Assembly: GCF_009931435.1 (NCBI RefSeq)
Contig: NZ_CP043414.1
Length of the DNA: 64,000 nt
Source of the DNA: Escherichia coli
Lineage (GTDB): Bacteria; Pseudomonadota; Gammaproteobacteria; Enterobacterales; Enterobacteriaceae
Strand: one strand, 5' to 3'
Part shown: piece by piece, positions 18,400 to 29,682 of the stretch
Numbering within the stretch: the first letter of the stretch is position 1
How the letters are laid out: each line of letters opens with the position of its first letter
The notes under the pieces: generated by a model
The model's input: the letters and a program-made list of their open reading frames with translations, nothing else
Databases searched by the model: none
Told to the model about the DNA's origin: nothing
Made by a program: the position numbers and the translations under genes

Positions 18400-19193
18400 T
18401 AAACAAAACTCACAGGTGCAGCACCCGCCGGATGCGGCAAAATACCCATCGGGATGCCATAAATCATTTCGAGGGTTTCGCCGCGCATAATTTCCGCAGG
18501 CGTTCCCTGAGCAATCATTTCACCGCCGCGCAGGGCGACCAGATAATCACAGTAACGCGCAGCCATATTGATATCGTGCAGCACGGCAATGACCGTCAGG
18601 CCACGCTCCTGACTTAAACGATGCACCAGCGCCAGCACATCAACCTGGTGGGCGATATCCAGCGCCGAGGTCGGTTCGTCGAGCAACAGACAACGGCTAT
18701 CCTGCGCCACCAGCATGGCGATCCACGCCCGTTGACGTTCGCCGCCAGAGAGGCTATCGACCAGCCGATGCGCCAGCGGTTTTAAGCCAACCAGCGAGAT
18801 AGCCTCTTCGACCTTTTCGCGATCTGCCGCGCCAAAGCGCCCCAGCGCGCCATGCCACGGGTAACGACCAATCGCCACCAGTTCACGCACCGTCATCCCT
18901 TCTGCCGGAGGAAGCTGCTGCGGCAAATAAGCCACTTTGCGAGCAAACGCTTTGCTGCTCCAGCTTTCCAGCGGCTGGGCATCAAGAAGAATCTCCCCTT
19001 CTGACGGTGGCTGATGGCGGCCCAACATTTTTAACAGCGTGGATTTACCAGAGCCGTTGTGACCAATCAGACCGGTCACTTTCCCGGCAGGAAAGGTTAA
19101 CGACAGCGGATGCAAAAGCGTGCGCCCGGGCACACGAAAGGAGATATTACGCAGTGCAAAAGTGGTATCGGAATGATTCGTGTATTCCTGCAT
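18396..19193 (-). CDS. fhuC: ferric hydroxamate ABC transporter ATP-binding protein
   Basis: ORF 18396..19235; start placed at MQEYTNHSD (265 aa); Walker A GHNGSGKST and ABC signature LSGGERQR. Confidence 0.93.
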   Translation of the reverse strand: MQEYTNHSDTTFALRNISFRVPGRTLLHPLSLTFPAGKVTGLIGHNGSGKSTLLKMLGRHQPPSEGEILLDAQPLESWSSKAFARKVAYLPQQLPPAEGMTVRELVAIGRYPWHGALGRFGAADREKVEEAISLVGLKPLAHRLVDSLSGGERQRAWIAMLVAQDSRCLLLDEPTSALDIAHQVDVLALVHRLSQERGLTVIAVLHDINMAARYCDYLVALRGGEMIAQGTPAEIMRGETLEMIYGIPMGILPHPAGAAPVSFVY

Positions 19194-19243
19194 AACAGCC
19201 AACTTGTGAAACGGGCACGGAAATCCGTGCCCCAAAAGAGAAA

Positions 19244-21487
19244 TTAGAAACGGAAGGTTGCGGTTGCAACGACCTGACGTTCTGCGCCCCAGAAGCAGCC
19301 ATAGGTATTAAAGCAGCTGGCGACGTATTCACGATCGAACAGGTTGTTGACATGCAGCGCCACGTTGGAGCCAGCCATGCCGACCCGCGCCAGATCATAA
19401 CGCACTAACGCATCCACGACCGTATAACTTCCCACTTTAAAGGAGTTAGCCGGATCACCATAGCTGGAGCCAGTATAACGACCACCAGTACCCAGCGTCA
19501 GGCCAGAAAGCGGACCATCAAAGAAGGTGTAGTCAGCCCACAGCGAAGCCATATGTTTTGGCACCTGCGCAGGCGTATTGCCTTTATAGGTAGTGTCGGT
19601 GGTGTATTCTGCATCGGTGTAAGTATAAGAACCAACTACGTTAACACTCGCCGACAGCGCCGCTTTCGCTTCGATTTCTACGCCACGCGCGCGGATTTCA
19701 CCACCTTCAACCGAGAAGAAGGAACCCTCAGGGTCCGCCATCAGGTTGTTGGTTTTAGTGAGATTATACACAGCACCAGTAACCACAATTGGGCGATCTT
19801 CCGGTACATATTTCACGCCGACCTCATACTGCTTACCTTTAGACGGCGCAAAAATATTACCATCCTTCCCAACTTGTGAAGAAGGTTCAAACGATTCGCT
19901 ATAGCTGAAGTAAGGTGTTACACCATTATCAAACAGGTAGTTAACACCACCACGCCAGGTAAACTGTTTGTCATCACGTTTATCGGTCGTCCCTTCAACG
20001 CGGTTATGAGACTCTTGATCCGCCCAGTCATAACGACCGCCCAGGGTGACCAGCACTTTATCCCACTGCGCCTGATCCTGAACATAAACACCCGTTTGTT
20101 TCTGCTTATTCAGAATGCGGTAAGGGCCGGAGTTTGCCGGATCTTTCGCATTGAAGTCGAAATCGGTATTCACCGGATTGTACAGATCGAGCAGCGGTAC
20201 GGAGTCGTCGTAACCAAACCAGGCGTTGATGTCATTACGCATACGCATAAAGTCGACACCGGTCAGCAGAGTGTGGTCGATATCGCCAGTGGCAAACTTG
20301 CTCTGCAACTGGGTATCAACGGAGAAGTTTTGCAGCTTCTCATCATCAACGACGTATTTACGTGCCAGGTAGTGACCTTTATCGGCTGGCGCTAAAGCGG
20401 CACACTGTTTGCTGTAAGCATTCGCCGGATCGGAGCAGACGCCGTAACCATAAACGCTGTTTTGCGAGGTTTTGTTTTCAGCAAAGCGCAGGTTCTGACG
20501 CACAGTAAAGGTGTCGTTAAATTCGTGATCGAAGCTGTAGCCCACCATCTTCTCATTACGAGAATAGGTGTTGTTCTTCGCCCCTTCGTTAAAATCTGTC
20601 GGCAGACGCTTACCGTTCGGCAGCGGCTCAACGGTTCCCTCTTTCGGCAGCCAGCCGTAATAACCGGTTTCCGGCTCGTTCTGGAAGTAAGAAAGGAAGG
20701 TGAAATTGGTTTTATCATCCGGACGCCAGGTAAACGCTGGCGCAATGGCATAACGCTGCTCTTCCGCGCCCTTTTGCTGGGCATTGGCAGAGCGCGCCAG
20801 TCCGGTCAGACGATAAGAGTAAACGCCGTCATCATCCAGCGCATCGCTAAAGTCGAAACCGGTCTGGAACAGGCTGTCTGTGCCCGCTTTAAATTGGATT
20901 TCTTTCAGCGGTTCGGTGGTTGGGCGCTTGCTGACCATATTTAACAGGCCGCCAGGGCTACTTTTACCGTAAAGAACAGAAACAGGGCCACGCATAATTT
21001 CAGCGCGTTCCAGCATATACGGGTCAATAACTGCATCGTTATAGAAGTTGCCTTGCAACTTCAGACCATTCAGATAGTTATTCTGGCTTTGGCCTTCTGC
21101 TGCAAAACCACGAATAATCAAATGATCATAAGTGTTTGATGCACCACGCGTACCGACCGAAACGCCTGGCGTATAGCTAAGCGCTTCTTTTACTGACTTA
21201 GGCTGATGCAGCGCCATTTCTTCGGCAGTGACAACAGAAATTGACTGCGGCACTTTTTGAATCGGTGTATCGGTTTTGGTGCCGGTAGCGGACTGTCGCG
21301 CCGCAATAGTTGCAGCTGGCCCCCATGCGCTTTCTTGCGGCGCTGGTGCAGCGGTAACGGTGATAGTGTCTTCTTTCGGTTCAACCGCTGCCTGTGCATA
21401 AACAGACATGCCGCTAACCGCTGTGGCTACTACAACTGCGATTTTACGCAGTGAGTGTTTTGGCTGAGCAGTTTTGGAACGCGCCAT
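19244..21487 (-). CDS. fhuA: TonB-dependent ferrichrome outer-membrane transporter (phage T1/T5/phi80 and colicin M receptor)
   Basis: 747-aa ORF with signal peptide, TonB box and C-terminal aromatic residue. Confidence 0.95.
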   Translation of the reverse strand: MARSKTAQPKHSLRKIAVVVATAVSGMSVYAQAAVEPKEDTITVTAAPAPQESAWGPAATIAARQSATGTKTDTPIQKVPQSISVVTAEEMALHQPKSVKEALSYTPGVSVGTRGASNTYDHLIIRGFAAEGQSQNNYLNGLKLQGNFYNDAVIDPYMLERAEIMRGPVSVLYGKSSPGGLLNMVSKRPTTEPLKEIQFKAGTDSLFQTGFDFSDALDDDGVYSYRLTGLARSANAQQKGAEEQRYAIAPAFTWRPDDKTNFTFLSYFQNEPETGYYGWLPKEGTVEPLPNGKRLPTDFNEGAKNNTYSRNEKMVGYSFDHEFNDTFTVRQNLRFAENKTSQNSVYGYGVCSDPANAYSKQCAALAPADKGHYLARKYVVDDEKLQNFSVDTQLQSKFATGDIDHTLLTGVDFMRMRNDINAWFGYDDSVPLLDLYNPVNTDFDFNAKDPANSGPYRILNKQKQTGVYVQDQAQWDKVLVTLGGRYDWADQESHNRVEGTTDKRDDKQFTWRGGVNYLFDNGVTPYFSYSESFEPSSQVGKDGNIFAPSKGKQYEVGVKYVPEDRPIVVTGAVYNLTKTNNLMADPEGSFFSVEGGEIRARGVEIEAKAALSASVNVVGSYTYTDAEYTTDTTYKGNTPAQVPKHMASLWADYTFFDGPLSGLTLGTGGRYTGSSYGDPANSFKVGSYTVVDALVRYDLARVGMAGSNVALHVNNLFDREYVASCFNTYGCFWGAERQVVATATFRF

Positions 21488-21508
21488 TGGTATATCTCTG
21501 ATGTAAAG

Positions 21509-21558
21509 TGAATGATAACGTAAACGAGAATGATTATTATAAAGATGAGATAATATTC
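21509..21558 (-). promoter_or_regulatory. Fur box(es) in the fhuA promoter
   Basis: GAGAATGATTATTATAAAG and GATGAGATAATATTC resemble the Fur consensus GATAATGATAATCATTATC, 25-70 bp upstream of the fhuA start. Confidence 0.6.
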
Positions 21559-21705
21559 GAAACGCTGGCGGGTTCGCAAGCGGTACGCAATCTGAGCATT
21601 CCTGAGGGGTTAATAAACAATCAGATGAAAAGAAAGGGTTAATACTTTGGGTAGGATGTTATTTTACCGGATGGCGACTCGCCATCCGGTATGTCAGCTT
21701 AGACG

Positions 21706-24240
21706 TTAATTACTACCAAACATATCCTTGATCCAACCTGCTACGCCGTCACTGTCTTTCTGCTCTTGCTGAGCAGGTTGCTGTTGCGGCTGTTGCTGCG
21801 GCTGAGAAGACTGATCAAACGGATTGCCTGACGGTTGCTGCTGAATCTCACTCTGCTGGCACAGCGATTGCGGATCGCTGGTCCAGACCGGCAAGACACG
21901 CATGCCACCGCTGCAAACAAAGTTGCCGTCGTAGTCCACGCCCATATCTGCAATATCTTCTGGTGGAACAAGATTCAGCGGTGTTGGCGTCTGGTTAGCC
22001 AGATAACGCTGATAAATCGACATTGCCCCGCTGGCTCCATACAGTTTGGTCGGCTGGTTGTTATCACGGCCTACCCAGGTGATGGTCACCGTGCTGCCGT
22101 CAATGCCCGCAAACCAGGTATCTACGTTGTTGTTGGTAGTACCCGTTTTCCCTGCCAGATGCAGATTTGGATATTTCGCCCCAAGCTGACGTCCCGTACC
22201 GCGTTGTACTACCTGCTGCATGGTCCATAGTGTCAGATACGCCGCCTGAGCCGGAACAGCGCGTTCCGCCTGCGGGAAGCTCTGATACAGTACCTTGCCA
22301 TCTTCCGCGATTACCGAACGCAGCGCAGAAAGCGGTGCTCGGTTACCACCACTAGCGATGGTCTGGAACGCCTGCGCCACTTCAATTGGCGTTAAGTTCA
22401 ACGCCCCCAGCAGCATTGCCGGAACCGGATGCAGCTGATCTTTCGGTACGCCCAGTTTAATCCAGGTATCCGTAACCGCAGGCAGACCCAGCGCCATCCC
22501 CAGATTCACCGTCGGCACGTTCATCGAACGTGTCAACGCATCCACCAGCATCACTCTGCCACTTTCGCTATAACGACGGTCATCGTTCTGCGGTGACCAG
22601 ACCTGGCCATTCGGCTGACGCAGCGCGATTGGCGCATCGGCAATCCACGTGTTCAGGCGATAGATTTTCGGCTGGCTTAAGGCCGTCAGATAAGTCGCTG
22701 GTTTTGCAAGAGAACCAATCGAACGACGCGCCTGCATCGCACGGTTGTAACCCGCAAACTGCGGCTCAGAACCACCGACCATCGCACGAACTTCACCACT
22801 AAAGCGGTCGACGACCACAATCGCGGTTTCAAGATCGCTCAACTTACGCTGTTTCTTCAGTGCCGGAATGCCTTCCACGGCGGCTTTTTCTGCCGCGTCC
22901 TGGGCCACCGAGTCAAAGGTTGTGAAGATCTTCACGCCGGAGAGATCTTTTACCTTATCGCCCAGTTTTGCCTGCAACTCCTGACGCACCAGCTGCATAA
23001 AGGCTGGCTGTGGAGAGATTACCCCACCGCGCGGCTGAACGCCCAGCGGACGTGCACTCAACATGTCATAGAGCTCTTGATCAATAATCTGCTGTTGTTG
23101 CAGCAGACGCAGTACCAGATTACGTCGCTCCAGCGCCAGTTTCGGGTTACGCCACGGGTTATAGATCGACGCCCCTTTCACCATACCAACCAACAGCGCC
23201 TGCTGGTCGAGACTCAGCTCTTCTACCGGGCGACCAAAGTAGTACAGGCTCGCCAGCGGGAAACCGCGGATTTCGTTGTCGCCGCTCTGACCGAGATACA
23301 CCTCGTTCATATACAGCTCAAGAATGCGGTCTTTGCTGTAACGCGCATCCATAATCAGCGCCATGTAGGCTTCGTTAGCTTTACGCCAGTAAGAACGTTC
23401 GCTGGAGAGGAACAGGTTTTTCACCAACTGTTGCGTCAGCGTACTCGCTCCCTGCACCGTGCGTCCGGCGGTCAGGTTTGCCAGCACCGCTCGTCCGATG
23501 GAGTAGAGACTGATCCCATCATGCTCGTAGAAATGACGGTCTTCAGTCGCCAACAACGTATCCACCAGCAAATCCGGGAACCCACTGCGCGGCACAAACA
23601 GACGCTGCTCGCCGTTTGGTGAGGAGATCATGGTGATCAGGCGCGGATCAAGACGGAAGAAACCGAACTGACGGTTGTTCTCCATATTGACGATGGTCGC
23701 CAGATGATCGCCATCAAAGGTCAGACGTGCACGCACCTGCCCTTCTTTACTGTCCGGGAAATCAAACGGACGGCGGATCATTTCAATGCTGTTGGCCTGC
23801 ACGGTAAATTCGCCAGGACGGGTCATTTTCGACACCTGACGATACTGGGTCGCCTCCAGCAGTTTCACCATCTCGTTTTTGCTGATGGTCATGTCTGGCT
23901 CAAGGTTGACCATTCGGCCATAAACAGCCGCAGGCAATTGCCAGACTTTGCCATCAATACGGCTACGAATTTTTTGATCGAGATAAACGCCGTAAATGGC
24001 GATCAGCACGGCAAAAACGATAGCAAGTTTTAGCAGTAGCCATAGCCAGCCGCGTTTGCCACGAGGCTTACGCCCTTTGCCTTTGCCCTTACCTTTGCGC
24101 GGCATCGGTTCTTCATCCTCATAGTCATCATAATCGTCGTAATCATCGTCATCTTCATAACGACGACGGCTTACCTTTTGTTTGACCGGACGCGTCGGTT
24201 TCCCTTTGCGTCCAATTGGCTCGCGGTCATTCCCGGCCAT
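21706..24240 (-). CDS. mrcB: penicillin-binding protein 1B (glycosyltransferase/transpeptidase)
   Basis: ORF 21706..24255; start placed at MAGNDREP (844 aa); acidic then Lys/Gly-rich N-terminus, TM helix, TG and TP domains. Confidence 0.95.
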
Positions 24241-24333
24241 GCTTTTTCTCCGCAATATTCAGGCGCAAAAGCCCGATTTTCTGTTCTTCTGTAACAAGAC
24301 AGAAGAAGATATCTCTCAAATTTACTTTGGTCT

Positions 24334-26763
24334 TCATGAATACTTTTTCGTCCGTCGCGTCGGTGCGGTATTTGCCGGATCATCCGGCCAGACGTGTTTG
24401 GGATAACGCCCTTTCATCTCTTTTTGCACCTCGCGATACGCACCTTTCCAGAAGGCGCTCAAATCTCGTGTGATTTGCAGCGGCCTTTGGGCAGGAGAAA
24501 GCAACTCCAGCACCAGCGGCACACGCCCCTGGGCGATCGTCGGATTGGTGGCCTCGCCAAACATCTCCTGCATTCTCACCGCCAGCGCGGGCGGGTTATC
24601 TTCATGGTAACGAATGGCGATCCGGCTCCCCGTCGGCACAGTGTAATGCGCAGGCAATTCACTATCCAGACGTTGCTGCATCCCCCAATCAAGTAATCCG
24701 CGTAGCGCCTGATAAATATCGAGTGATTTCAGGCCGCGTAGCGAATGTACGCCTGCCATATGCGGCAGTAGCCACGTTTCCAGCGTCGCCAACAAACTTG
24801 CATCATCAACCGCTGGCCAGTCATATTCCGGCAACCACTTTGCGGCGCATAACAAACGCAAGCGTAGCTGTTCCGCTTCCGCCGTCCAGTTGAGCACGCT
24901 TAAACCTTTATCACGAATGCCGTTAAGCATTGCCTGATGCAACTCGTCTTCCGAGGGTTTCGCCAGCGGCTGCACTTTCACCGTCAACTGACCGATTTGC
25001 AGCCGACGCCACGCTTTCAGCGTACCTTGCGCATCATCCCACTCCACAGTGTCAGACTGCTGTACCAACTGCGGACAGCGTTGTACTAATTCATCGATAT
25101 CGACCGGTAGCGCCAGTAAAATCCGCGCATCCGGCGAGGCGCTGCCCTGCAATAATAACGGTGCGATCAACCATTCGTGGCGGCTTAGCGCATCGTCGGC
25201 ATCGAGCATTGCCCCCATGCCGTTTGCCAGTTGATAGCGTCCATCTTGCCCACGGCGACGAGCAATGCGATCGGCATACGCCCCGGCAAGTAGCGGCGCG
25301 ATAAGAGAACTGTCTGCCTCACCGCCGCGTACGTTTAAACGTTTTAACAGTTGCTGGCTACGTTGCTGCCAGGCAGGTTGATTGCGCGAAAACGCCACAT
25401 CCAGATCGATATTGCCCATCCGTGGTGGCTCTTCGAGAATAGCGGCAATTTTTGCAGCGGTAGCAGCTTCGTCGTCGCTCCTTGCGCTCACCAGCATTGC
25501 CGCTAAACGCGGATCGTTACCCAGCGTCGCCATTTTCTGCCCTTTCGTGCTTAGCCGTTCACCGTCCATCGCCCCCAGCATCCGTAACAGGCGTTTCGCG
25601 GCCTGTAAATTCACGGCTGGCGGTTGATCCAGCCAGCTCATCTGCGTCGGATCGCTGCATCCCCATTGCAGTAATTCCATCAGCAAACCGGAGAGATCGC
25701 TTTGTAAGATTTCCGGTTCACTTTGCGCGGAGGCGCGTTCTGCTTGTTCTTTGGCGATTAAATGTAAACAGATCCCCGGCTCCAGACGTCCGGCACGCCC
25801 GGCGCGTTGCGTCATTGATGCCTGGCTAATGCGTTGGGTAATCAGCCGCGTTAGCCCCGTGCGCGGATCAAAGCGCGCCACACGTTCCTGAGCACAATCC
25901 ACCACCAGACGAATACCTTCGATGGTTAAACTGGTTTCAGCAATATTGGTTGCCAGCACCACTTTGCGCATCCCTTCTGGTGCCGGAAGGATCGCTTTTC
26001 GCTGATCGTTCAGCGACAACGCGCCATACAGCGGGCAGAGCAACACATCACTACCGATGCGCGAAGCTAGTTGTTCCTGAACGCGCTGAATTTCTCCGAC
26101 ACCAGGTAAAAATAACAGTAATGAGCCGCTTTCCTGATGCAGCAATTCGGCGGTGGCAACCGCCACGGCTTCATCAAAACGCTGATGAGCGAGCAGCGGT
26201 AAATATCGGCGTTCAACCGGAAATGAGCGCCCTTCTGAGATGACGACGGGCGCTTCTGGCAGCATCTGCTGCAAGCGGTCATTGTCCAGCGTAGCCGACA
26301 TAATCAGTAGTTTAAGGTCATCACGCAGACCTTGTTGCACATCGAGTAACAGCGCCAACGCCAGATCCGCCTGCAAGCTGCGCTCATGAAACTCATCGAG
26401 GATCACCAATCCAACGCCGCTCAGTTCAGGGTCACGCTGGATCATGCGCGTCAACACGCCTTCGGTAACTACTTCCAGGCGAGTATTTGGCCCGACACAG
26501 TTTTGCGCGCGCATCCGGTAGCCTACCGTATCACCTGTTTTTTCGTTAAGCAGTTCCGCCAGTCGTTGCGCAACGTTACGCGCCGCCAGGCGACGCGGCT
26601 CCAGCAGGATAATTTTTCCGTTAATGCCGGGATGCGCCAGCAGTTGCAGCGGCAGCCAGGTTGATTTCCCGGCCCCGGTCGGCGCACTTAATAACACCTG
26701 CGGTGCACCATCGAGGGCAGCAAGTAACTCAGGTAAGACGGCGGCAACGGGCAACGACGACAC
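24334..26763 (-). CDS. hrpB: ATP-dependent RNA helicase HrpB (DEAH-box)
   Basis: ORF 24334..26808; start placed at the GTG at 26763 (VSSLPVAAV, 809 aa); motifs GAGKST and DEFH. Confidence 0.9.
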   Translation of the reverse strand: MSSLPVAAVLPELLAALDGAPQVLLSAPTGAGKSTWLPLQLLAHPGINGKIILLEPRRLAARNVAQRLAELLNEKTGDTVGYRMRAQNCVGPNTRLEVVTEGVLTRMIQRDPELSGVGLVILDEFHERSLQADLALALLLDVQQGLRDDLKLLIMSATLDNDRLQQMLPEAPVVISEGRSFPVERRYLPLLAHQRFDEAVAVATAELLHQESGSLLLFLPGVGEIQRVQEQLASRIGSDVLLCPLYGALSLNDQRKAILPAPEGMRKVVLATNIAETSLTIEGIRLVVDCAQERVARFDPRTGLTRLITQRISQASMTQRAGRAGRLEPGICLHLIAKEQAERASAQSEPEILQSDLSGLLMELLQWGCSDPTQMSWLDQPPAVNLQAAKRLLRMLGAMDGERLSTKGQKMATLGNDPRLAAMLVSARSDDEAATAAKIAAILEEPPRMGNIDLDVAFSRNQPAWQQRSQQLLKRLNVRGGEADSSLIAPLLAGAYADRIARRRGQDGRYQLANGMGAMLDADDALSRHEWLIAPLLLQGSASPDARILLALPVDIDELVQRCPQLVQQSDTVEWDDAQGTLKAWRRLQIGQLTVKVQPLAKPSEDELHQAMLNGIRDKGLSVLNWTAEAEQLRLRLLCAAKWLPEYDWPAVDDASLLATLETWLLPHMAGVHSLRGLKSLDIYQALRGLLDWGMQQRLDSELPAHYTVPTGSRIAIRYHEDNPPALAVRMQEMFGEATNPTIAQGRVPLVLELLSPAQRPLQITRDLSAFWKGAYREVQKEMKGRYPKHVWPDDPANTAPTRRTKKYS

Positions 26764-26836
26764 AAAACGCTCCAGAGGGTTAACATTCTTCGCGCCACAT
26801 TGTAGCATCGCGGTAATGCATAACCGAGTACCTCAC

Positions 26837-28086
<1,250 letters not shown>

Positions 28087-28263
28087 TAGAGTAAGTAACT
28101 GGTTAATTTACATTCTGGTCGCGTGCGCAAATACGCTTTTCCTCACACAGTTGTCAAGTGTTACGTTTAGATAATTGCTATCCGGAAAAGCTTCTGCTAT
28201 TTATAGCGGCCTCATTTTTCCCCCGAACATGGGGATCGATAGTGCGTGTTAAGGAGAAGCAAC

Positions 28264-28719
28264 ATGCAAGAAGGGCAAAACCGTAAAACATCGTCCCTGA
28301 GTATTCTCGCCATCGCTGGGGTGGAGCCATATCAGGAGAAGCCGGGCGAAGAGTATATGAACGAAGCCCAGCTGGCGCACTTCCGTCGTATTCTGGAAGC
28401 ATGGCGTAATCAACTCAGGGATGAAGTCGATCGCACCGTTACACATATGCAGGATGAAGCAGCCAACTTCCCGGATCCGGTAGACCGTGCAGCCCAGGAA
28501 GAAGAGTTCAGCCTCGAACTGCGTAACCGCGATCGCGAGCGTAAGCTGATCAAAAAGATCGAGAAAACGCTGAAAAAAGTGGAAGACGAAGATTTCGGCT
28601 ACTGCGAGTCCTGCGGTGTTGAAATTGGTATTCGTCGTCTGGAAGCGCGCCCGACAGCCGATCTGTGCATTGACTGCAAAACGCTGGCTGAAATTCGCGA
28701 AAAACAAATGGCTGGCTAA
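28264..28719 (+). CDS. dksA: RNA polymerase-binding transcription factor DksA
   Basis: ORF 28246..28719; start placed at MQEGQNRK (151 aa); C4 zinc finger [25 protein letters not shown]. Confidence 0.95.
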
Positions 28720-28746
28720 TTACAGCCGTTCCATCACGTTTACCAC

Positions 28747-28776
28747 AGGCGGGAAATGCTCCCGCCTTATTTTTTG
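28747..28776 (+). terminator. rho-independent terminator after dksA
   Basis: stem AGGCGGGA/TCCCGCCT with 5-nt loop followed by TTATTTTTT; overlaps the 5' end of the gluQ ORF. Confidence 0.75.
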
Positions 28777-29682
28777 TTCAACGAGATGACAGACACACAC
28801 TATATTGGCCGCTTTGCCCCCTCTCCTTCCGGCGAGCTTCATTTTGGCTCTCTGATTGCCGCGCTTGGAAGCTTTCTACAGGCTCGCGCCCGGCAAGGTC
28901 GCTGGCTTGTTCGCATTGAAGATATCGATCCGCCTCGTGAAGTTCCCGGTGCCGCAGAGACCATCCTGCGCCAGCTGGAACATTACGGTTTACACTGGGA
29001 CGGCGATGTTCTCTGGCAATCGCAACGTCACAACGCCTATCGCGAAGCACTCGCATGGTTACATGAGCAAGGGTTAAGTTATTACTGCACCTGCACGCGC
29101 GCACGTATTCAAAGCATTGGCGGTATTTACGACGGTCATTGCCGGGAGTTGCATCATGGGCCAGAAAACGCTGCTGTACGTATTCGCCAGCAGCATCCGG
29201 TCACCCAGTTTACTGACCAGCTGCGCGGCATTATTCATGCCGACCAAAAACTGGCGCGGGAAGATTTTATTATTCATCGTCGTGATGGTCTATTTGCCTA
29301 TAACCTGGCGGTGGTCGTTGACGATCACTACCAGGGCGTGACAGAAATTGTTCGTGGCGCGGATTTGATCGAACCCACGGTGCGCCAAATCTCGCTGTAC
29401 CAGCTTTTTGGCTGGCAGGTGCCAGATTACATTCATTTGCCACTGGCACTTAATCCACAAGGCGCTAAACTTTCCAAGCAGAATCATGCGCCTGCGTTGC
29501 CAAAAGGCGATCCTCGGCCGGTGTTAATCGCGGCACTTCAATTTCTGGGCCAGCAGGCAGAAACACACTGGCAGGATTTCAGCGTCGCGCAAATTCTCCA
29601 GTCAGCCGTCAAAAACTGGCGGCTCACCGCAGTGCCTGAGTCGGCAATTGTAAATTCAACATTCTCAAATGCGTCATGCTGA
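28756..29682 (+). CDS. gluQ: glutamyl-Q tRNA(Asp) synthetase
   Basis: 308-aa ORF from the ATG at 28756, which lies inside the dksA terminator; alternative in-frame ATG at 28786 (MTDTHY); class I aaRS HIGH-like motif ([10 protein letters not shown]). Confidence 0.85.

Follow-up and report, generated by a model that had tools for sequence, protein, structure and literature searches.

Results

The mrcB locus

The window, a 64,000-nucleotide stretch of E. coli DNA (contig NZ_CP043414.1 of assembly GCF_009931435.1), carries the mrcB (ponB) coding sequence on its minus strand at 24240..21706, where it encodes the 844-amino-acid alpha form of PBP1B, a bifunctional glycosyltransferase/transpeptidase. 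RefSeq CDS starts of other genomes align with the ATG at 24240, which is the true start; the alternative TTG start at 24255 given by the ORF lister is a mechanical extension of the frame. The gene is flanked by fhuA (19244-21487) on one side and hrpB (24334-26808) on the other. The neighbors fhuA, hrpB, thpR, sfsA and dksA form the E. coli arrangement, and the same names were found under a 10-kb match.

Judged from its sequence, the gene product is PBP1B (MrcB), a class A penicillin-binding protein. The NCBIfam equivalog NF007061 (cutoff 1120) scored 1733.8 bits over residues 1-843, and TIGR02071 (PBP_1b; cutoff 717.75) scored 1248 bits. Pfam domains occur in the order PBP1_TM (residues 1-79), UB2H (113-197), Transgly (209-379) and Transpeptidase (473-714); as PBP1_TM spans residues 1-79, even the N-terminal tail falls within a curated family. 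The PBP1B chains in the PDB (3VMA, 3FWL and 5FGZ, among others) match from residues 53, 55 or 58 to residue 804, and the N-terminal tail is present in no solved structure. A 231-nt query from the 5′ region of mrcB was matched in 5,424 of 5,426 complete E. coli genomes, and the annotation at this locus is mrcB in 5,424 genomes. No complete E. coli genome exceeded 98.1% identity over 10 kb, which suggests that the window derives from an E. coli lineage that is somewhat unusual, or from a very close relative.

The N-terminal 60 residues encoded in the window are identical to the K-12 sequence given in PMC13423804, and the two start codons, the domain order and the neighbors (fhuA beyond one end of the gene, hrpB and thpR beyond the other) are those of K-12 mrcB. 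The window differs from K-12 by point differences only, such as an isoleucine in place of methionine in SEIQQQ near the C-terminus. Tyr28 is encoded by a synonymous TAT codon that was found in none of the 5,424 genomes using the 231-nt query.

Charge blocks in the N-terminal tail

Residues 1-64 constitute a cytoplasmic tail organized as three charge blocks, basic (residues 1-28), acidic (29-44) and basic (45-64), followed by a transmembrane anchor. The first block begins with the alpha-only N-terminal peptide (residues 1-14; 24199..24240, minus strand) and includes a basic segment at residues 9-27 (24160..24216, minus strand); residues 1-28 contain 10 K/R and 2 D/E. The acidic Asp/Glu/Tyr block, E29 to E44 (24156..24109, minus strand), has 13 D/E in 16 residues. 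The juxtamembrane Lys/Gly/Arg run, K49 to G64 (24096..24049, minus strand), is retained in both isoforms and reaches 16 K/R/G in 17 residues. Immediately downstream, residues 65-87 (23980..24048, minus strand) form the hydrophobic stretch assigned as the transmembrane anchor, which overlaps the Pfam PBP1_TM match.

Composition was tested by shuffling the protein sequence 20,000 times. A density of 13 D/E per 16 residues was reached in none of the 20,000 shuffles, the shuffle maximum being 10, and 16 K/R/G per 17 residues was likewise never reached. The content of lysine and arginine by itself, 10 K/R per 17 residues, was reached by 15 of the 20,000 shuffles. An earlier note on this DNA had described an Asp/Tyr-rich acidic run followed by a Lys/Gly-rich run at 24100-24240. 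Both strings proved exact, with densities beyond all shuffles; as for location, the acidic run and the internal methionine described below lie inside that interval, the basic run (24096..24049) falls just outside it, and mrcB runs on the minus strand.

Two in-frame translation starts

The ATG of Met1, at 24238..24240 on the minus strand, is the start of PBP1B-alpha. It is preceded by the Shine-Dalgarno sequence GGAG (24248..24251, minus strand), which is separated from it by the 7-nt spacer AAAAAGC and has a predicted anti-Shine-Dalgarno duplex energy of -6.6 kcal/mol. A second ATG, that of Met46, lies in frame at 24105..24103 on the minus strand, just before the basic run that begins at 24096, as the earlier note had recognized. 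Its position is the published codon 46 position of the PBP1B-gamma start. The Glu41-Asp42 codons create a Shine-Dalgarno-like GAGGA (24120..24116, minus strand) 10 nt upstream of this ATG, with a predicted duplex energy of -6.1 kcal/mol. Among the 62 in-frame ATG, GTG and TTG codons of the gene, Met1 and Met46 are the only ones with anti-Shine-Dalgarno pairing at or below -6 kcal/mol. A scan for promoters and terminators detected no promoter-like site at 23900-24800, leaving a separate gamma promoter without evidence; one terminator-like hairpin was detected in the same interval, a count no higher than in shuffled sequences.

These signals have to be weighed against a reading in which Met46 is an ordinary methionine, short PBP1B arises by proteolysis only, and GAGGA is a by-product of coding for Glu-Asp. 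A proteolytic form of PBP1B, designated beta, appears in the older literature. Any Glu-Asp pair encoded as GAG GAY will also generate GAGGA, and the 10-nt spacer to Met46 exceeds the textbook optimum, which may make internal initiation weak. Predicted mRNA structure argues for the opposite conclusion. In a 30-nt ribosome-binding window, Met46 ranked first and Met1 second in predicted accessibility among the 62 in-frame start-like codons, and, set against every window of the mRNA, the Met46 window fell at the 98.8th percentile. The purine-rich codons of the acidic block and of the Lys/Gly run pair little, which is plausibly why an internal site could recruit ribosomes here.

Retention of the internal start across Enterobacteriaceae

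One genome per species was scanned, and 80 Enterobacteriaceae loci were aligned with the window to give 81 N-termini. Residues 1-14 hardly vary (mean majority fraction of 0.987 over the 81 sequences), in agreement with a 2026 study (PMC13423804). The acidic D/E/Y block and the Lys/Gly/Arg block are present in all species aligned, with lengths that vary. The tail ahead of the anchor measures 58-68 residues in the 80 species, and all gap columns within the first ~346 residues of the cross-genus alignment are confined to residues 13-53.

Codon 46 is ATG in 70 sequences, GTG (Val) in 7 and a non-start codon in 4, so that 77 of the 81 sequences keep a start. That every Val46 is encoded by GTG carries less weight than it seems to, since GTG is the sole valine codon one mutation from ATG. 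A GTG internal start is predicted for Klebsiella pneumoniae. GAGGA is present in 69 of the 70 ATG sequences, in 5 of the 7 GTG sequences and in none of the 4 with a non-start codon. Against GAGGA as a by-product of coding, synonymous codon choice at Glu41 is the reverse of that at the adjacent glutamates: Glu41, whose codon forms GAGGA, is GAG in 69 sequences and GAA in 8, Glu43 is GAG in 7 and GAA in 57, and Glu44 is GAG in 14 and GAA in 53, with the proviso that these species are phylogenetically related and counts such as 69 versus 8 are not independent events. In 4 of 4 sequences that have no start at codon 46, GAGGA has gone as well, and this joint loss also speaks against an ordinary methionine. 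The pattern of codon and GAGGA retention fits selection on a putative internal ribosome-binding site.

The four sequences with a non-start codon comprise three Kluyvera-like genomes and Pseudescherichia vulneris. The gamma form has apparently been dropped altogether in the Kluyvera and P. vulneris lineages. Loss of start and Shine-Dalgarno-like sequence together in these few genera predicts the existence of gamma-less species.

E. coli produces alpha-PBP1b and a gamma form made from the second start codon (PMC13423804, Nat Microbiol 2026), seen as PBP1b bands of 94.2 and 88.9 kDa on western blots. Knowledge of the two forms dates back to 1984-85; the work cited there is that of Kato 1984, Broome-Smith 1985 and Chalut 2001. 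The M46L mutation removes the second start, leaves alpha only, and is in use for eliminating gamma (PMC13423804). In E. coli, ribosome profiling with retapamulin (Ribo-RET) recovered the internal start of mrcB as a peak, mrcB being one of three E. coli genes with previously characterized internal starts (10.1101/520783), and the same pair of mrcB proteoforms, again with Ribo-RET signal at the internal start, was found in S. Typhimurium (PMC11005335). Trapping of initiating ribosomes at codon 46 in two species, together with the M46L data, in effect refutes a proteolysis-only origin of the short form, which we regard as very improbable. The identification of the internal methionine with the known shorter isoform, made in the earlier note, is thus borne out. 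The assignment of mrcB as a two-isoform gene that uses in-frame internal initiation is supported: the start codon, the Shine-Dalgarno-like sequence and their retention fit it here, and the products themselves are known from the literature.

Micro-repeats in the tail-coding DNA

The tail had been described as built from short codon repeats. The repeats are real, yet most are imperfect. TRF reported a period of 6 at 24074-24098 in the Lys/Gly region (4.2 copies, 78% matches), and periods of 6, 9 and 12 at 24113-24158 in the acidic region, with 65-80% matches. Perfect tandem duplications are limited to GATx2 (24147..24142, minus strand) and GGCAAAx2, the latter followed by two further bases, GG (24087..24074, minus strand). 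ORFs that overlap the repeats on the opposite strand or in another frame, such as those of 42 amino acids at 23996-24124 on the plus strand and 24030-24158 on the minus strand, were set aside as mechanical products of the repetitive sequence.

Length variation within E. coli

Among E. coli genomes, hits shorter than the 231-nt query by 3, 6 and 9 bp were found, and in-frame deletion alleles of the tail account for ~6% of the 5,424 complete genomes. Two deletions were identified, and both fall exactly on the perfect tandem duplications. Loss of one GAT, which converts DDDD to DDD, was seen in aligned genomes H57, H58 and H60 and occurs in ~179 of the 5,424 genomes. Loss of one GGCAAA unit, which converts KGx4 to KGx3, was seen in aligned genomes H59 and H60 and occurs in 143 of the 5,424. 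The KG deletion site comes 15 nt into the coding region of gamma. The suspicion that the repeats are indel-prone is thereby substantiated, and the tail is not of invariant length across strains or, with its range of 58-68 residues, across the 80 species.

Allele frequencies were estimated with allele-specific queries. The reference length, DDDD with KG4, was assigned to ~5,096 genomes (94%), and DDD with KG4 to 179 genomes (3.3%) at 99% identity or better to the DDD allele. For KG3, a query with the deletion centered gave a clean split between 143 genomes (2.6%; 132 exact and 11 with a mismatch) and the other 5,281, which carry the extra 6 bp. A query with the deletion near its 3′ end had returned 380 genomes at 99% or better, an artefact that arises when a shortened, 92-nt alignment ties with the gapped one. 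Both deletions occur together in at most about a dozen genomes (95-99% identity band). A further genome labelled E. coli in GenBank (E69) is without a whole 9-bp DDY unit and without one KG unit. Strains that carry the deletion alleles include ETEC1738 and N17.

DDD and KG3 are each found on at least two SNP backgrounds; despite this, each deletion allele could represent one old event that has been clonally inherited. KGx3 is the state in most other genera, which makes KGx4 look like an Escherichia-specific duplication and the KG3 of E. coli a secondary loss.

Repeats lying between the two starts raise the possibility of a phase-variable contingency switch, in which a frameshift upstream of Met46 would turn off alpha and leave gamma still being made. 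Logically, such a frameshift would remove alpha only, and length variation at the repeats does exist. The observed variation is of another kind. All indels seen in the coding repeats are multiples of 3: -3, -6, and -9 in LR14, which has both deletions. The sampled length alleles are all annotated as intact coding sequences, and a single length is common to 94% of the genomes. Contingency loci are characterized by a long perfect tract that shifts frame or promoter spacing, and the perfect repeats here have two copies only, far below known contingency tracts. We consider such a switch highly unlikely. It is less likely still that the polymorphism is a sequencing or assembly artefact of low-complexity DNA: the 1-bp difference in an A5 homopolymer of the 5′ UTR in genome H56 does resemble a long-read error, but what is lost in the coding region is always a complete repeat unit of 3 or 6 bp, the individual alleles recur in 143-179 complete genomes that originate in many laboratories and hosts, they occur on different SNP backgrounds, and variation of the same kind is seen between species.

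Discussion

Textbooks already cover mrcB, its low-complexity tail and its two isoforms, and a 2026 publication assigned a function to the alpha-only extension. What is added here is modest and descriptive, namely the population and cross-species figures, with the observations that the micro-repeats of the tail do vary in length among strains and that most Enterobacteriaceae keep the internal start along with its Shine-Dalgarno-like sequence. Taken together, the data are best explained by the 5′ end of mrcB encoding a charge-block tail, with two isoforms made from one mRNA and length variation at micro-repeats, a reading to which we assign a probability of about 0.93.

In this scheme, initiation at Met1, directed by GGAG, yields PBP1B-alpha, and initiation at Met46, by way of the Glu41-Asp42 GAGGA in purine-rich mRNA that is predicted to be unstructured, yields PBP1B-gamma. 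The gamma form has neither the initial basic block nor the acidic one, and keeps the juxtamembrane Lys/Gly patch. Of the 45 additional residues in alpha, residues 1-14 bind FtsA, and FtsA-dependent recruitment brings alpha to the septum or division site (PMC13423804); by this route the extension would carry the enzyme to the site of division. The acidic block may provide a flexible spacer, and the Lys/Gly run a positive-inside patch close to the membrane. Imperfect repeats of 3, 6 and 9 nt that include perfect tandems would be expected to undergo replication slippage, with gain or loss of single units in frame. Length changes of this size are probably tolerated because what matters in the blocks, a linker and a membrane-proximal patch, is composition and charge and not exact sequence.

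The arrangement has parallels in other systems. As in infB and clpB, which are found in the same Ribo-RET sets (Meydan et al., PMC11005335), a single mRNA has two starts in the same frame, both with a Shine-Dalgarno-like element of their own, and the shorter product is without an N-terminal module. In ClpB and IF2 that module is a folded domain, whereas the alpha-only module of mrcB is a disordered cytoplasmic peptide that precedes a membrane anchor. A second likeness, drawn in PMC13423804, is to the class A PBPs of Gram-positive bacteria that bind GpsB, in which a short, basic, disordered cytoplasmic N-terminus likewise serves recruitment to the division site. The sequences are unrelated, however, and the partner of PBP1B is FtsA instead of GpsB; for these Gram-positive PBPs, no two-start arrangement is reported in the text examined.

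It is conceivable, although doubtful, that differences in tail length are non-neutral, either by tuning the reach of the alpha peptide to FtsA or by altering the ratio of alpha to gamma. If they are, lineages would differ in the strength with which PBP1B fortifies the septum. The natural length alleles, which together make up ~6% of complete E. coli genomes, could serve as ready variants for studying the effects of linker length on FtsA-dependent recruitment.

Variation in mrcB and its surroundings among E. coli genomes

Within the collection of complete E. coli genomes, the 5′ end of mrcB, the PBP1B gene, was without a match in only 2 of 5,426 genomes, and 3 of the matches fell on plasmid-labelled records. 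A 231-nt query against the same collection returned no genome matching the TAT codon at Tyr28. The segment of the window from 19000 to 29000 is unusually diverged for E. coli: over these 10 kb, its best match among 5,424 complete genomes is 98.1% identical. At the 3′ end of mrcB, 201 nt were matched at an identity of at least 99% in only 15 complete E. coli genomes. The closest representative of a species other than E. coli was Escherichia sp. MOD1-EC7003 (95.0% identity).

The Gln/Pro-rich C-terminal tail of mrcB ([13 protein letters not shown]; 21745-21800, minus strand) is polymorphic in length. Among the 5,424 complete E. coli genomes, approximately 780 (14%) fell into low-identity bands for this tail, and in the low-identity genomes that were sampled it was shorter by 9 bp, [10 protein letters not shown] being replaced by QPQQQQP. 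Length polymorphism is commoner in the C-terminal tail than at the N-terminus, where in-frame deletions remove one Asp codon or one Lys-Gly unit.

Translation starts of mrcB and sfsA

The spacer between the Shine-Dalgarno sequence of the alpha form (GGAG) and the Met1 ATG (24241-24247, minus strand) contains AAAAA in the window. In a single genome, CH4794, this run is replaced by AAAA, shortening the spacer from 7 to 6 nt; the change may be a genuine variant or a homopolymer sequencing error.

Approximately 3 kb from mrcB lies sfsA (27382-28086, plus strand), a further gene with an internal start in Meydan et al. (10.1101/520783), where that start is reported as verified experimentally.

Loss of the internal start in related species

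At the position equivalent to Met46, the start of the shorter gamma form, three Kluyvera-like loci (L080, L082 and L086) and that of Pseudescherichia vulneris (L075) carry Arg or Ala. The Shine-Dalgarno-like element GAGGA, which lies 10 nt upstream of the Met46 ATG, is likewise absent from all four of these genomes lacking Met46. With both the start codon and GAGGA missing, these four are predicted from sequence to produce no gamma isoform.
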